From a virus: 40,712 nt of DNA. The translations under genes and the position numbers were made by a program. Shown here one piece after another: positions 1,883 to 18,175 of the stretch (the first letter of the stretch is position 1; each line of letters starts with the position of its first letter). The notes under the pieces are model-generated. The model had not been told where the DNA came from and ran no database searches. It worked only from the letters and a program-made list of their open reading frames with translations. The DNA is taken from the IMG/VR virus record IMGVR_UViG_3300045988_118684, positions 1 to 40,712 of that record. One strand, given 5' to 3'.

Positions 1883-3067
1883 TTACTTGATGTACAGGCT
1901 TTCACCTGGGTAAATCAAACTGTAGATTGACTTGCCATTGTTGGCTGCCAGTGTGTACATGCTGATGCCATACTTGCTGGCAATACTCCAGAAGCTGTCA
2001 CCAGAGCGGACTGTATAATACGTGTGGCTTACCAGCGAAGTATATCCAGACGAACGCGAGCCATAGCTCTCCCCACCATTCACGCCCAAGGCAACATAAT
2101 GATACCGACCGGAGTAGCTGAGGTACCGTGCCCAGACGTATGAACCGCGAATATACACATGATCATACACAAGGCTCTCACCCGGCACATAGCTGCCAAC
2201 TGCCGTGTATCCTGTACCAGCACCAGTGCGGATGTTAACAGTCGTGGAAGGCTTGAAAACACCAGTTTGCGCATAGTCGGAATCACTGGCTGCATTTGAT
2301 TTCGCTGGTTGGCTTGGCACCGGTGTTACAGGTGCTGACGGGGTTTCTGGTTGGCTCGAGTAGCCATTATCAGTGATACCAAGCAGATCAATGTTACCAT
2401 CGAGGCCTTGCGACAGCCCAAATGCGCTCGTGTACTGCCAAATAGCTACCCCATCCATACTCGGAAAATAACCGTAGTCTGGTTTGGTAGTTGGTAGATA
2501 ATCACGGTAAGCAGCAATCCAAAGGCTGTTAGGAAATTCTTTCAGAATACGCTGATAATCGACGTGTGCCAATGTATATGGCTTGTAACTGTAATACATG
2601 GGCGTGTAGCCTTCGGAATGAATGCGCCGCATACCAGCTAAAATTGCATCCGTATTAGCTGCCATATTCCCAGAAGCACCATCTTCGTAATCCAAAGCAA
2701 CGATGCTTCCCTTTGGCGTCTGTGCTTTGATACGAGGCATATAACGGTCAAGTGCTTCTAATCCCAACTGGCTACTTGCACCAACACCATACCAGATGTA
2801 GCTATGCACACGTTTTCCTGCCGCCTTGGCACTAGCAATTTGGCTATCATACGTCCACTGATCGATGTACGTACCACCGTAAGTTCCGCCAATCTGAGCT
2901 ATGACGAACTTGTCTTGATCTGTTCCATATCGTCCACTTGCTCCCTGATACTTCGCCCAATCCGGGCCCTGATCACCCTTGGCCGCATTGACCTGCGATG
3001 GCAGGGCAAAAGAAATAGCCGCTAAGAAGGCGACTACCAAGGTAATTAGTTTAGTTTTTAGTTTCAT
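1883..3067 (-). CDS. Endolysin: signal peptide + GH25 muramidase + SH3b-like + LysM
   Basis: ATG at 3067 follows TAAGGAGGAAACC. The N-terminus is MKLKTKLITLVVAFLAAISFALPSQVNA|AKG. GH25-like DWAKYQG..FVIAQIGG..AGKRVHSYIWY is present. The C-terminus carries LysM YTVRSGDSFWSIASKYGISMYTLAANNG. Confidence 0.9.
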   Translation of the reverse strand: MKLKTKLITLVVAFLAAISFALPSQVNAAKGDQGPDWAKYQGASGRYGTDQDKFVIAQIGGTYGGTYIDQWTYDSQIASAKAAGKRVHSYIWYGVGASSQLGLEALDRYMPRIKAQTPKGSIVALDYEDGASGNMAANTDAILAGMRRIHSEGYTPMYYSYKPYTLAHVDYQRILKEFPNSLWIAAYRDYLPTTKPDYGYFPSMDGVAIWQYTSAFGLSQGLDGNIDLLGITDNGYSSQPETPSAPVTPVPSQPAKSNAASDSDYAQTGVFKPSTTVNIRTGAGTGYTAVGSYVPGESLVYDHVYIRGSYVWARYLSYSGRYHYVALGVNGGESYGSRSSGYTSLVSHTYYTVRSGDSFWSIASKYGISMYTLAANNGKSIYSLIYPGESLYIK

Positions 3068-14007: not shown

Positions 14008-14489
14008 CTACATTGATTTGATAAAGTCGGCAAGCGAGACTGCCTTTTCTTTTTCTGGTTCACTTTGCAGCAGCACCTCTTGTAGCGTCTCCCAATCAGT
14101 TTTCATAATGTCATTGATCGTGAACCCCGGAACATTTGTAACAACCGAACGAATCATTTTGTAGATTTGATTTAATGCTTCTTTTCTGCTGATTCGCTCG
14201 CTGCCACTTTTTTTGGGTCAATCCCGAAAAGCTGCTGATTGAAGGTGTTAAATACTTTGTTGAAGTCCCAAGCGGCAACACCGTCTAAAATTCGTTGCTT
14301 AGTTACGCTTTTGTCTTCAAAACAAGAAGCCATAAATTCTGCGTTTTTTTCCATCCAATCTGATTCATCTAGATCAGGAAAGTTCTCGGGAGTTAGTTTT
14401 AAGCCTTCGATCAGTTTTAAGGCGGGCACGAATGTTTCTTGAAAGTGCTCAACCTTGCCATCTTTATTACGTAAATCAAGTTTTAGCAT
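14008..14489 (-). CDS. Tail assembly chaperone -1 frameshift product (gpGT-like)
   Basis: Slippery A AAA AAA is at 14214..14208 in the zero frame CCA AAA AAA GTG. The -1 frame stays open to TAG 14010..14008 and reads KKSGSERISRKEALNQIYKMIRSVVTNVPGFTINDIMKTDWETLQEVLL..ADFIKSM. Confidence 0.7.
14172..14489 (-). CDS. Tail assembly chaperone (gpG-like)
   Basis: ATG at 14489 lies 6 nt after AAGGAGA. It sits between the major tail protein and TMP and contains the A AAA AAA slippery site near its 3' end. Confidence 0.8.
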   Translation of the reverse strand: MLKLDLRNKDGKVEHFQETFVPALKLIEGLKLTPENFPDLDESDWMEKNAEFMASCFEDKSVTKQRILDGVAAWDFNKVFNTFNQQLFGIDPKKVAASESAEKKH

Positions 14490-14563
14490 GATAAGTCTCC
14501 TTATTTTAGATGCCGCCCTGAACTCAATCAGCATTGTTTATTTCTGAGGCGACAATTGTATTT

Positions 14564-14830
14564 TTAAGCAGCAGTTACGGTTACCGATGTGCTTGCTGTT
14601 TTGCTTCCATCGTGTGTCGTCACAGTGACGGTTGCAGATCCAGCCGAAATACCAGTTACAACGCCATTAGCATTGACAGTAGCGACTGCTGTGCTGCTTG
14701 ATGCAAAACTAACAGACTTGTCAGTTGCATCCGTTGGACTAACTGTAGCCGTCAATGCGGTGGTTGATCCAACTTTCACGCTCGCTGTTGCCGGTGTCAG
14801 AGATACCCCAGACACCGTTACGGGTTTGGG
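14564..14830 (-). CDS. Ig-like (Big_2) C-terminal extension of the major tail protein, reached by a probable -1 frameshift
   Basis: Heptamer C CCA AAC is at 14830..14824, followed by a 6-nt spacer and a 7-bp stem CGGTGTC/GACACCG. The downstream ORF is in the -1 frame, has no SD, and has a Big_2-like sequence. Confidence 0.6.
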
Positions 14831-15408
14831 GTTGCCTTTAAAACCTGCGCCTTCACCGTGCTAATAGCTGTTGCATCAGACCCGACATATTTAGCAACGT
14901 ACTCGCCTTTTTGATCACCATCATCAGGTGAACCGGCCGCAGTAAACGTATAGCTATCGCCTTCTGGTGCCTTCTTGTCAGCTGGATCTTGTGTATTCAA
15001 GGTCTCTTTGTCCTTGGCAAATTTGCCGCGGAAGAATCCTAAATAGGCACTGTCCCCAGCCAAACTTTCTGCTTCCAAAAGAACGCCGCAGTATGGTGGG
15101 TTAGTGTCATTACCCACATAGGTAATGCCTGCTTCGGTAGTTTTCTGGCCAAGGATCTTTGCTTCAGAATCAAATGGCAGATCAATCAAGGTAAAGTCCA
15201 CAGATACTTCACCAACACCCTCTTGAGAAATCCAATATTCAATATCTGATGCAGCCGTTTTCAACGGATTGCTTGCTAATCCTGAAATTTCGGCGGTAAT
15301 AGTACCACCTTTGTTTTGATCGCCTTGGATAACAATTGGATCACCATCGGGAACCCCTAATTTGTCAAACGGTTGAATGGTCATGCGTGGAAAATGTACT
15401 AAAGTCAT
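14818..15408 (-). CDS. Major tail (tube) protein
   Basis: 196 aa, with ATG 7 nt after AAGGAG. It occupies the canonical position upstream of the chaperone. Confidence 0.85.
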
Positions 15409-16210: not shown

Positions 16211-16593
16211 TGCTTCGCCCCCAATACCAGCGTAATGAACCTGTTGGCTTCAAAATCATGGCGAACTTCTTCAATCTGCCATTCCTTAACTTCCTGATAG
16301 CGAGAATCTTCAATAAACGCTGTCATTTTGTTGTTAGGAATGAATTCACCCTTGGTATCGCGAATAATCACAGTGACGCCCAGGTCAACCTCATGGCTAT
16401 CAAGAACTACCTTGTCTTTATTGCTTGGCGAATAGGCATCGCAAAGACAAAAAAACACTTCTTTAGGCTCAATGTCTGTCGGCTCTGGTGAATCGCCAAC
16501 ATCTTGAGCATAGAAGTGGATCGGTATTCTTAATTTTCCACTATCGACTTTGGGAGGCTGATACTGAAAGCTTGGGCGACTAACCATTGTCAT
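16207..16593 (-). CDS. Head closure / head-tail adaptor protein
   Basis: The call rests on synteny. Likely starts are ATG 16593 or 16587, after GAGGAGG. The tracked start at 16605 overlaps the upstream gene more deeply. Confidence 0.65.
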   Translation of the reverse strand: MTMVSRPSFQYQPPKVDSGKLRIPIHFYAQDVGDSPEPTDIEPKEVFFCLCDAYSPSNKDKVVLDSHEVDLGVTVIIRDTKGEFIPNNKMTAFIEDSRYQEVKEWQIEEVRHDFEANRFITLVLGAKQ

Positions 16594-16870
16594 CGTCCTC
16601 CTCACCGTATGCTTGCAGGCTTAGGCCAATGATCGTAGACAGAAAGTTGTCTTCGAAAAATTCAGCCTGATCATTGTAGACATACCTAGTGCGTTCAATG
16701 ACAAGCTCTTTGAATTGGTTATTGGTGATATCAGACACTCCAGTCATGCGATTAACTGCATCGTACGAGGCTTGTAGCATGTTTTTAAGCTCAGCGTCTT
16801 CTGATGAGTGGTAAATGCTCATTCGAGCTTTAAATTCTGTCAAAAGCGATTCAACCTGATCATCATTCAT
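16580..16870 (-). CDS. gp6-like head-tail connector protein
   Basis: 96 aa and acidic, typical of the DNA-packaging/connector family. It is the first gene after the capsid gene. Confidence 0.7.
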   Translation of the reverse strand: MNDDQVESLLTEFKARMSIYHSSEDAELKNMLQASYDAVNRMTGVSDITNNQFKELVIERTRYVYNDQAEFFEDNFLSTIIGLSLQAYGEEDDDNG

Positions 16871-17015
16871 CTGGTGTCACCCCCGCAAGTTTCTGTAAAT
16901 CTGCCTTTAATGCATTGCTTGGGTAACTGATTCCCTTTGAATCGAGGTATGACTTAAGCTGTGCAACGGTGGAGTTGCTGTCTACCCCCGCTTCAACGGG
17001 GGATACTATTCCCCC
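16863..17015 (-). CDS. Probable -1 frame C-terminal extension of the major capsid protein (HeH-like motif)
   Basis: The -1 frame is open across 17039..16863 with no start codon until near its end. It reads GIVSPVEAGVDSNSTVAQLKSYLDSKGISYPSNALKADLQKLAGVTPDE. A G5 run at 17015..17011 is followed by a hairpin 6 nt downstream. Confidence 0.5.
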   Translation of the reverse strand, partial: GGIVSPVEAGVDSNSTVAQLKSYLDSKGISYPSNALKADLQKLAGVTPDE

Positions 17016-17031
17016 GTTGAAGCGGGGGTAG
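16982..17031. repeat. Perfect 22-6-22 palindrome spanning the capsid gene stop
   Basis: + strand reads CTACCCCCGCTTCAACGGGGGA TACTAT TCCCCCGTTGAAGCGGGGGTAG. Each arm can also fold alone as CCCCCG-N6-CGGGGG. Confidence 0.95.
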
Positions 17032-18175
17032 CACTTGGATCAGTAATATTAAGTGCATAGACAAGTGCAGCATTACTATCTGCTGGTGCACCATAGAAGA
17101 ACTGCTTAGCAGTGAACAGGATTGCATCCTGAATAGCCAATGTTTGATTAAAGTCAGAGATGTTTAAGCCACCAGCCATGTATGCGTCATAACGGCCTTT
17201 AACAAAAGCAATAGCCTTCCCATCTGGAACGTACTGAGATTCAATGATCTGAATGCCATATGGTAGCGCATATACCCACTGACCATTAACGTTTTGCATG
17301 GTCATTGCACGTTCAAAATCAAGCGAAGCACCCGGCTGTACAACCAAAATGGTGTTTCCACGTGCAACTACAGGCTTGCCGTTTGCTTTCTTGGACAGAG
17401 CCTTAATGATGGCCATCAGTTCAAACTTTGCCGTGTCAGCATCTTTGAGAGTTACAGTGCCTGCATCAGCCTTAACAGGATAGGTTGTCACGCCATCGGC
17501 TGTGGCACCTTTTGACGGATCGCGATCAAGCCCAATTGGCTTACTATTACCATCGCCATCGACAAAAGCAGATTCAGATGCGGCCGCAAACGCTTCGGTG
17601 ATTTGGGTAGTAACGTATGTGCGTACCCATGCCGGACCGAATGAATCAAGATCATTAGGCAGCACTACGAATGCCGTCAGTTTACTCATTTCTGCATCAA
17701 CAGACGTGAACGTAGCATCAAGCTGCCCTTGAATATCGCCAAAAATCTTGCCCCATACAGCGGCACCTGTAGCATCAGACTTCCAGATTTTCAAGCGCAC
17801 ACCGTTGTTCTGCAAACCAATCGCTTGCAGCAGAGGGTGATTAGAAGTCAGATCTTCGAAAATCTTGTCCACAGTGGTTTGTGGAATAAGCTGGTCGTTT
17901 TTGAACCCAGTATCAGTCGAGATATCATTGAAGAATTTAACTTCATCTTGTGTCATCTTCACATCACCGGTGTTGGCTGCAATGATGTTATCAATTTCCT
18001 CTTGGGTTTTATTCTTAAGTTTCTCTTGGAAGCTATTGAGATCAGTGGAAAGCGCGTCCATCATTTCACCAAAGGCCTTGCCTTGGGCCTCAGCGTCACC
18101 GCCACTTTTGACAATGTCTGCGAATGCCTTTTGTTTTTCCGCAAAGGTATCTAAATTCTTAAAGCTCATAGTCAT
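17006..18175 (-). CDS. Major capsid protein (HK97 fold family)
   Basis: 389 aa. It follows the ClpP-type prohead protease and portal. Confidence 0.9.
   Translation of the reverse strand: MTMSFKNLDTFAEKQKAFADIVKSGGDAEAQGKAFGEMMDALSTDLNSFQEKLKNKTQEEIDNIIAANTGDVKMTQDEVKFFNDISTDTGFKNDQLIPQTTVDKIFEDLTSNHPLLQAIGLQNNGVRLKIWKSDATGAAVWGKIFGDIQGQLDATFTSVDAEMSKLTAFVVLPNDLDSFGPAWVRTYVTTQITEAFAAASESAFVDGDGNSKPIGLDRDPSKGATADGVTTYPVKADAGTVTLKDADTAKFELMAIIKALSKKANGKPVVARGNTILVVQPGASLDFERAMTMQNVNGQWVYALPYGIQIIESQYVPDGKAIAFVKGRYDAYMAGGLNISDFNQTLAIQDAILFTAKQFFYGAPADSNAALVYALNITDPSATPASTGE

Follow-up and report, generated by a model that had tools for sequence, protein, structure and literature searches.

The 40,712-nt viral sequence IMGVR_UViG_3300045988_118684 of IMG/VR (positions 1 to 40,712 of the record, which as a whole is called the window here) encodes an HK97-type major capsid protein on its minus strand, and behind the stop codon of this gene the -1 frame encodes a helix-extended-helix (HeH/LEM) domain. 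The window locus probably produces, by programmed -1 ribosomal frameshifting, a trans-frame protein in which this domain is joined to the C-terminus of the capsid protein. An earlier reading made from the letters of the window (the sequence-only reading) had proposed that a -1 shift appends a HeH extension of about 50 aa to some of the capsid subunits. This proposal is now supported by the selection acting on the HeH frame, the lack of a start codon, natural in-frame fusions, canonical heptamers in relatives, and the spacing of a downstream hairpin.

The addition of domains to capsids by frameshifting is established (T7 10B, A2 gp5B, and the Listeria phages PSA, A118, and A500). The window reads as a case of Listeria-type capsid-HeH recoding in a Lacticaseibacillus prophage, and its peculiarities are a G-rich non-canonical heptamer and a self-extended palindrome. 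None of these points overturns current understanding.

Layout of the capsid junction

The early genes of the window, which belongs to a Lacticaseibacillus prophage (casei group), share 92-96% identity with those of A2-like phages, and among the deposited phages searched no close counterpart of the capsid module was found. The features of the junction are as follows.

18175..17006, minus strand: major capsid protein gene, 0 frame, HK97-type, 389 aa (open reading frame list)
17031..16982, no strand assigned: perfect 22-6-22 inverted repeat with arms 17031..17010 and 17003..16982, 100% complementary, and a 6-nt spacer
17031..17010, minus strand: 5' arm of the palindrome, within the capsid coding sequence and including the heptamer
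17015..17009, minus strand: proposed slippery heptamer G_GGG_GAA, non-canonical (sequence and junction tables)
17008..17006, minus strand: 0-frame capsid stop TAG, adjoining the 3' side of the heptamer
17002..16985, minus strand: hairpin CCCCCG-TTGAAG-CGGGGG, 6-7 bp, 6 nt (TAGTAT) past the heptamer
17015..16863, minus strand: -1 extension, with the linker G-G-I-V-S-P-V-E-A-G-V-D-S-N-S followed by HeH; stop TGA at 16865..16863
16970..16887, minus strand: HeH/LEM domain TVAQLKSYLDSKGISYPSNALKADLQKL (Pfam, residues T24-L51)
16870..16580, minus strand: downstream gene, 96 aa (open reading frame list)

The capsid open reading frame (ORF) matches the Pfam family Phage_capsid (PF05065, E=1.8e-15), has 533 homologues at E<=1e-20, and ends with ...GCT_ACC_CCC_GCT_TCA_ACG_GGG_GAA_TAG. 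The 135 nt that separate the capsid stop from the ATG at 16870 form a gap in appearance only: the last 8 nt of the extension ORF are shared with the gene that starts at this ATG (ATGAATGA), and therefore the region is packed with coding sequence. The downstream gene shows weak similarity to head-tail connectors (Phage_connect_1, E=0.0029, under the cutoff). When the sequence and the ORF list were read again, the capsid stop, the ATG at 16870, and the 135-nt gap were found where the sequence-only reading had put them, and all of its coordinates were correct. Two assemblies made from different samples (ENA ERZ28650318 and Logan SRR4305404) contain exactly the same junction sequence, with the palindrome. 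This agreement argues against an assembly artefact, and one of the two may be the source of the window itself.

A HeH domain encoded in the -1 frame

The -1 frame is open from 17039 to 16863, which corresponds to 58 sense codons and the TGA, and it is preceded by another TGA at 17042..17040. The sole ATG, GTG, or TTG in this frame is the GTG at 16880..16878, five codons ahead of the stop, in agreement with the earlier description of a frame open for 59 codons and free of such codons until 5 codons before its end. Counted from the slip site, the extension would make the capsid protein approximately 47 residues longer.

The -1 peptide matches Pfam PF12949 (HeH/LEM) with 40 bits (E=3.1e-10), above the gathering cutoff of 28.9 bits, and the guess of a HeH/SAP-type motif was therefore right. 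Relatives in which capsid and HeH are fused in frame score 44 bits against the same family. A profile of HeH extensions finds residues 87-120 of FluMu gp35 (PDB 2OUT, E=2.8e-8). The AlphaFold2 model of the extension consists of a helix (17-27), an extended linker, and a second helix (37-43), with predicted local distance difference test (pLDDT) values of 85-88. The top Foldseek matches obtained with the 50-residue model were SAP, HeH/LEM, and Rho_N domains; all had E>0.01 and none is individually significant, which makes this a matter of consistency only.

Conservation was assessed in 66 IMG/VR loci with 99-38% capsid identity, together with annotated phages. Loci with a capsid identity of at least 93% were taken as the close family, which comprises 34 junctions, the window included. 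The HeH ORF is open in the -1 frame of all 34 and of 12 junctions of the PM411 type or of locus L051. The same frame arrangement recurs in about 45 independent contigs that span 50-99% capsid identity, and the conservation check proposed by the sequence-only reading thus came out in its favor. That reading had also asked whether relatives that keep the hairpin carry stop codons in the -1 frame. None that breaks the ORF was found in the 34 close-family junctions, and in the single shortened case (L012) the HeH ORF loses only its last five residues.

The pattern of substitutions was analyzed in 20 distinct close-family sequences. Outside the hairpin, the variable sites fall 6/2/14 on the three codon positions, and the ratio of synonymous to non-synonymous codon differences is 73:60 in the HeH frame versus 15:101 and 35:90 in the other frames. 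Within the group that carries GGGGGAA, the extension has 5 codon columns with synonymous changes only and 0 with an amino-acid change. When both groups with non-canonical heptamers are considered, 8 synonymous and 6 non-synonymous columns are obtained (3:11 and 2:14 in the other frames). Purifying selection acts on the -1 ORF, which encodes a bona fide HeH domain.

Strong evidence that the HeH domain belongs on the capsid polypeptide comes from natural in-frame fusions. Single-ORF proteins of 430-445 aa, found in Latilactobacillus, account for 11 of the 120 best homologues, and they align with 98% of the conceptual trans-frame product; Pfam detects both Phage_capsid and HeH in 10 of these 11. 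In the comparison set, two lineages have the in-frame fusion, Latilactobacillus phage TMW 1.1365 P2 (445 aa) and locus L040 (433 aa). In TMW 1.1365 P2 and in prophages of L. curvatus the homologous capsid protein (52-54% identity) carries the same linker and HeH domain (PF05065 plus PF12949). These fusions need no recoding, so every subunit carries HeH.

Proposed slip site and downstream hairpin

The capsid stop lies immediately 3' of the heptamer in 22 of 22 distinct junction sequences with HeH in the -1 frame. At the identical position, the close family has the canonical GGGAAAC in 15 junctions, GGGGAAA in 12, and GGGGGAA in 7 (window included), and the PM411 group carries G_GGA_AAA, which is canonical too. 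Some relatives, the PM411 group among them, have a -1 frame that opens merely 3-4 codons ahead of the stop, and therefore the shift is confined to the heptamer beside it. At the window heptamer, P-site re-pairing (GGG to GGG) is perfect, and A-site re-pairing (GAA to GGA) needs a G.U pair in the middle position.

The sequence-only reading had placed entry into the -1 frame within 17039..17009 and had pointed to both a C5 run (17028..17024) and GGGGGAA. The comparisons favor the heptamer beside the stop as the shift site; the C5 run is specific to a sub-lineage. As a conserved slip site it was rejected, being absent from L032 (99% identical to the window) and from all other relatives, although a minor additional P-site slip on C_CCC may take place in the window only. 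Transcriptional slippage was rejected as well, given that runs of five G or five C are too short for it. We infer that slippage in the window would occur on G_GGG_GAA, and its efficiency and mode (tandem or P-site only) are likewise inferred.

The hairpin CCCCCG-TTGAAG-CGGGGG is found at 17002..16985, 6 nt past GGGGGAA, as had been described. The fold of 17008..16975 has a free energy of -13.9 kcal/mol (z=-3.3). In the close family, 34 of 34 junctions show the succession of heptamer, TAG, TAT, and the CCCCCG...CGGGGG hairpin, which is kept with two different loop sequences. Other GC hairpins are present at the same spacing in the PM411 group, in L051, and in Listeria A118/A500, and across lineages four unrelated GC hairpins begin 5-6 nt past the heptamer. 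The PM411 group (~54% identity, including Lactobacillus phage PM411) has G_GGA_AAA with TAG or TAA, 6 nt, and CCCCGG-ACA-CCGGGG, with HeH in the -1 frame; L051 has G_GGA_AAC_TAA with yet another hairpin.

The mean minimum free energy, computed on the 42 nt starting at the stop codon, is -13.5 kcal/mol for the 22 distinct junctions with HeH in the -1 frame and -6.0 kcal/mol for 14 junctions without an extension. The spacing of the hairpin is that of -1 frameshift signals, in which a stable structure lies ~5-9 nt past the heptamer. The conserved design is G_GGR_RRN followed directly by a 0-frame stop and then, after a spacer of 5-6 nt, by a GC hairpin, and it matches the standard layout of bacterial and phage programmed -1 frameshifting. 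With the same hairpin and the same cargo, the series GGGAAAC, GGGGAAA, and GGGGGAA offers a natural experiment on the tolerance of bacterial -1 frameshifting to A-site mismatches. A degenerate junction pattern run against species-representative genomes gave 31 chance-like matches in unrelated taxa, and the one relevant match was in Lacticaseibacillus zeae (GGGAAAC type).

Proposed mechanism

Most ribosomes would read ACG_GGG_GAA and stop at the TAG (17008..17006), giving the 389-aa capsid protein. The ribosome would melt the 5' arm of the palindrome ahead of the slip site, which would leave the 3' arm free to form the stimulatory hairpin, and at the moment of slippage this hairpin (17002..16985) would sit at the mRNA entrance of the ribosome. 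A fraction of the ribosomes would then slip one base back on G_GGG_GAA (17015..17009), with tRNA-Gly re-pairing from GGG to GGG and tRNA-Glu (anticodon UUC) from GAA to GGA with a central G.U pair. On the GGGGAAA variant, tRNA-Lys would re-pair from AAA to GAA with a G.U pair in the first position. Because of such G.U re-pairing, a drift from A to G at the heptamer may be tolerated.

The shifted ribosomes would go on in the -1 frame to the TGA at 16865..16863, and the longer product would carry a flexible linker (IVSPVEAGVDSNS) and a HeH/LEM module of ~30 residues at the capsid C-terminus. The trans-frame junction peptide is expected to be ...ASTGEIVSPVEAGVDSNSTVAQLK or ...ASTGGIVSPVEAG...; the form ...ASTGE-IVSPVEAGVDSNSTVAQLK would correspond to tandem or stop-site slippage after Glu decoding, and the form ...ASTGG-IVSPVEAG... 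to P-site slippage on G_GGG.

The palindrome

The perfect 22-6-22 inverted repeat at 17031..16982, which the sequence-only reading had reported, is indeed perfect. As RNA it makes a 22-bp stem whose loop holds the stop codon, and it folds at -50.4 kcal/mol compared with -18.9 +/- 2.8 kcal/mol for shuffled sequences (z=-11.2). There is no other long perfect inverted repeat in the 40.7-kb window, and the repeat exceeds what is expected by chance. The exact 50-nt palindrome has no occurrence in IMG/VR or JGI metagenomes. Only its 3' half, the hairpin, is conserved; the 5' arm is absent or far shorter in relatives. As a frameshift context, the palindrome proposed earlier therefore stands for its 3' hairpin and not for its 5' arm, which is a recent, sub-lineage-specific addition outside the conserved signal.

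Clustered substitutions that perfect an inverted repeat are a known signature of templated quasipalindrome mutation. The window and its 99%-identical relative L032 show only 4 differences within about 880 nt (locus positions 2130 to 3011), at 17029, 17027, 17026, and 17024. These turn GCAGCT into ACCCCC (window 17024..17029; L032:2647-2652), and all of them lengthen the pairing. An earlier clustered change, from GGTGGCTCG to GCTTCAACG, separates L032 and the window from L035 and L029 and extended the arm, which had been 7 nt long, to about 14-16 nt. Because the four clustered changes all extend the pairing, the 5' arm most likely arose by templated (quasipalindrome) mutation, and the change from GCAGCT to ACCCCC would be a clean natural case of this process inside a coding region. 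The C-terminal tail of the capsid protein passes through the series AAAGGSGE, AAAASTGE, and ATPASTGE, and tolerates these palindrome-driven changes.

An intrinsic terminator was rejected: no terminator is called at the palindrome, and the stem leads into AGACAGCAACTCC, without a T-tract. A scan against Rfam 15 returned only two chance-level matches (21 and 13 bits versus cutoffs of 142 and 50). The long stem might conceivably be regulatory, acting through attenuation, RNase III cleavage, or stability. A more elaborate scenario, to which we give only a small chance, is that templated mutations by the stimulatory hairpin turned G_GGA_AAC into G_GGG_AAA and then into G_GGG_GAA, which would still shift by means of the A-site G.U pair, and that the 22-bp stem, by hiding slip site and stop, is a tunable attenuator or an RNase III/stability switch. 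If this were true, the long stem would determine how many subunits are HeH-tagged relative to plain ones, or how strongly the downstream connector genes are expressed, and the window would provide a natural example of a frameshift signal that remodels its own slip site.

Comparison with known systems and possible role of the HeH domain

The closest precedents for the window capsid gene are found in the Listeria phages A118 and A500 and in PSA, ahead of A2. The coat genes of A118 and A500 use -1 frameshifting and that of PSA +1 frameshifting, and they are discussed alongside Ig-like extensions (Atkins 2016, PMC5009743), where Dorscht et al. 2009 is cited for A118/A500 and Zimmer et al. 2003 for PSA. 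The cargo of these Listeria capsid frameshifts is HeH. The cps genes of A118 and A500 end with GCG_GGA_AAC_TAA, the heptamer of 15 close relatives of the window, and their -1 frame encodes MTVAELKEELANRNIEFASNAKKAELVALL, a linker followed by HeH/LEM. A GC hairpin (-19.7 kcal/mol) lies 6 nt downstream, and the next gene is a head-tail adaptor, an arrangement like that of the window. They differ from it in the capsid protein, which has about 280-300 aa and belongs to another family than the 389-aa Phage_capsid protein of the window, and in the heptamer (G_GGA_AAC versus G_GGG_GAA). Unlike in the window, the extension of A118/A500 holds an ATG that overlaps the stop, and for this reason RefSeq annotates it as a separate gene.

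The cps gene of PSA resembles that of the window in having an HK97/ClpP-type capsid protein and a C-terminal HeH extension gained by recoding (MKVVELKEELDKRGITYNTSDLKSDLILKL), for which the record says "ribosomal slippage". It differs in its +1 shift at ACA_CCC_UCC with a pseudoknot, a design that is also present in Leuconostoc phiMH1 and Streptococcus Javan478. In phiMH1 (L079:1440-1610), HeH lies unannotated in the +1 frame behind a CCC codon (ACG_CCC_AGC), and in Javan478 (L080:1450-1611) it lies in the +1 frame behind CCC in a PSA-like context (TTG_CCC_TCA_TAA).

Phage A2 of Lactobacillus casei, with which the sequence-only reading had compared the window, makes gp5A and gp5B by a capsid frameshift (Garcia et al. 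2004, as cited in PMC5009743). It shares with the window the host group, a -1 shift near the capsid stop, and a longer capsid species, and the analogy holds at this level of mechanism. It does not extend to the heptamer, C_CCA_AAA placed one codon before the stop (C_CCA_AAA_GCG_stop), nor to the cargo, an 85-residue Ig-like (Big_2-type) extension in place of HeH. In phage T7, a -1 shift near the end of gene 10 gives about 10% longer product (10A/10B), whose C-terminus is on the capsid surface. T7 10B, which is mentioned in PMC5009743, is like the predicted window product a minor, C-terminally extended capsid species made by a -1 shift by the stop; its slip site and extension are unrelated, and the extension has no recognised domain.

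The same HeH motif occupies the same slot, right after the major head gene, in TP901-1 (MCP3, ORF37) and FluMu (gp35). Unlike the extension of the window, MCP3 has a start codon of its own, the ATG of a TAATG overlap, and its knock-out just lowers the plating efficiency (Stockdale 2015, PMC4493119). The slot is occupied in Listeria B025 by gp6 (56 aa), a non-HeH protein that matches no Pfam family.

In the window phage, HeH-tagged capsid subunits are presumably sub-stoichiometric. The C-terminus of HK97-fold capsid proteins faces outward, and SAP/HeH motifs are generally nucleic-acid-binding. By analogy, the extended C-terminus may face outward, and with low confidence the HeH domain might serve as a capsid-tethered nucleic-acid-binding module that aids DNA packaging or the docking of prohead and terminase. 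The extension sits in a slot of the gpFI type, directly behind the major head gene and ahead of the genes for head-tail connectors. As related in PMC4493119, Popovic et al. 2012 considered MCP3 related to the packaging chaperone gpFI and proposed its attachment to the head protein by a -1 frameshift. This relationship was not reproduced by profile comparison, and a packaging-related role is for that reason a tentative hypothesis taken from the literature. Comparison of lambda gpFI with the HeH extension by hhalign gave 3.9% with a single sequence and 0.8% with a 13-sequence profile, values that lend no support to the packaging role, with the profile so shallow (86-98% identity) that a remote homology is possible. 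Homology to lambda gpFI was thus unsupported by either search, and gpFI belongs to another Pfam family (PF14000), with only a sub-threshold SAP match of 18 bits.

The way in which HeH is encoded behind capsid genes varies: it lies in the -1 or the +1 frame, continues the capsid frame, or has a gene of its own. Such arrangements were observed in phages of Lacticaseibacillus, Lactiplantibacillus, Latilactobacillus, Leuconostoc, Streptococcus, Enterococcus, Lactococcus, and Listeria. Therefore, a mobile, capsid-associated, putative DNA-binding module looks widespread. A search of the literature on HeH, capsids, and frameshifting found no paper that describes HeH as the cargo of a capsid frameshift. 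RefSeq/PGAP annotates the extension (window 17009..16863) as a separate 48-aa gene starting at ATA, and in the records of PM411, phiMH1, and several Javan phages it is unannotated. A frameshift product is probably being mis-annotated systematically, as a separate gene or as a gap, which affects prophage completeness calls and proteomic databases.

Alternative explanations

Several observations weigh against frameshifting in the window. As the sequence-only reading had already cautioned, G_GGG_GAA is no textbook heptamer, departing from X_XXY_YYZ; re-pairing of the A-site tRNA would require a G.U pair in the middle position, so the efficiency at this site could be low or nil. A related site, G_GGG_GAG_TAA, precedes a HeH cassette with an identical linker behind two unrelated Enterococcus-type capsid families, and this cassette provides weaker support for non-canonical sites because it has no convincing hairpin and holds an in-frame ATG. 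The synonymous-only signal of the GGGGGAA group amounts to 5 codons and could have been imported by recombination with relatives that carry canonical heptamers. Finally, a western blot of TP901-1 showed no second capsid band (Stockdale 2015, PMC4493119), and therefore HeH is not always capsid-linked.

It is conceivable, though unlikely, that the signal of the window has decayed. The slip site would have drifted from GGGAAAC to GGGGGAA and would no longer shift, the HeH ORF would be a recent relic, and the stem would act at the RNA level only, where it might stabilise the RNA, be processed by RNase III, or form a barrier to translation between the capsid and connector genes. This would agree with the non-canonical heptamer, with a 22-bp perfect stem of -50 kcal/mol that buries slip site and stop, and with the youth of the lineage, in which an unexpressed ORF could still be intact. 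However, the GGGGGAA group has 5 synonymous versus 0 non-synonymous columns, G_GGG_GAG precedes HeH in two unrelated Enterococcus capsid contexts, and a translating ribosome would open the long stem before the slip site; a role of the stem as an RNA element finds neither a T-tract, a terminator call, nor an Rfam family. Somewhat less probable still is a free-standing 48-aa HeH peptide initiated by termination-reinitiation at the ATA (17009..17007) that overlaps the stop. NCBI (RefSeq/PGAP) holds a 48-aa "HeH/LEM domain-containing protein [Lacticaseibacillus]" that begins M-VSPVEAG, TP901-1 has a free-standing HeH gene with its own ATG after the capsid gene (TAATG overlap) and no second capsid band, and genes of this kind are annotated in A118/A500. 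Yet ATA is a very poor initiator, and 15 close relatives as well as L051 keep the ORF although they have CTA at this place, a codon that cannot initiate. There is no Shine-Dalgarno sequence at a workable distance from the ATA, the heptamer and the hairpin are conserved instead of start signals, and the in-frame fusions show the module to be functional within the capsid protein.

The palindrome is perfect and unique in the window, as would be expected if it were a DNA-level element (a protein-binding, recombination, or cruciform site) that overlaps the capsid gene by coincidence. This is very unlikely, considering that its 5' arm is missing from the 99%-identical relative and from all others, that the exact palindrome does not recur in IMG/VR or JGI metagenomes, and that the four clustered, pairing-extending changes fit a mutational by-product. 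Least credible is a broken gene or a sequencing error, in which an ancestral in-frame fusion, of the kind that relatives do have, was disabled by a stop and a frame change or was misassembled. About 45 independent contigs have the same arrangement, with heptamer, adjoining stop, and hairpin kept throughout, and two assemblies of different samples agree on the window sequence; the comparative data have in effect refuted this explanation already. Programmed -1 frameshifting is the explanation that we prefer.

Other capsid junctions in the comparison set

Besides the junctions that encode HeH in the -1 frame, the loci compared show other arrangements at the end of the capsid gene. In L038 (2640-3000) the capsid gene ends with G_GGA_AAA_TAA and the -1 ORF runs for 113 codons that do not encode HeH (...SFTLAEKDVPEHKVGDKIYFYVQSF...); different cargo domains seem to have been swapped onto a conserved slip site. 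The Enterococcus-type cassette, G_GGG_GAG_TAA-ACACGCCTAGCGCTCGA-ATG...HeH, is near-identical in L070 (2970-3123) and L071 (2470-2629), where it follows unrelated capsids, namely a 395-aa protein of the Phage_capsid type (Enterococcus innesii) and a 291-aa capsid protein beside Phage_scaffold. The HeH module and its junction appear to move as a unit between capsid families.

In six loci (L060-L065, about 2590-2680) the capsid gene ends with ATT_CCC_AGC_TAA, and the +1 frame is free of stops over 27 codons upstream and 23 codons downstream (ANAGSLNVSASPNAKSANISWEV...). A hairpin, GCCGGC...GTCGGC, follows, which is compatible with a possible +1 recoding into another domain. In L037 and L039 (about 2620-2700) the capsid gene ends with C_CCA_AAA_GCG_TAG, the motif of phage A2, and the -1 frame has just 16 codons, which could be a remnant or a very short extension.

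Recoding sites in the tail genes of the window

Two genes downstream of the capsid junction carry recoding sites of their own.

15408..14818, minus strand: tail tube gene (Phage_TTP_1), ending ACC_CCA_AAC_CCG_TAA
14830..14824, minus strand: canonical tail tube heptamer C_CCA_AAC (sequence)
14817..14811 and 14798..14792, minus strand: arms CGGTGTC and GACACCG of the tail tube hairpin, with a 6-nt spacer after the heptamer
14534..14172, minus strand: tail assembly chaperone gene (Phage_TAC_19), with A_AAA_AAA at 14214..14208 and the -1 frame continuing to 14008

The -1 frame of the tail tube gene runs to 14564 and encodes a Big_2 Ig-like domain (Pfam E=3.9e-17). The A2 tail gene, with C_CCA_AAA_GCG_TAG and an Ig-like -1 extension of 80 residues, resembles it, and the tail tube junction of the window copies this second A2 frameshift almost exactly. 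The site in the tail assembly chaperone gene is canonical as well and is the usual frameshift of the G/GT type; the two tail sites count in favor of frameshifting at the capsid gene. Together with the capsid and tail tube sites, this makes three -1 recoding sites in one structural module.

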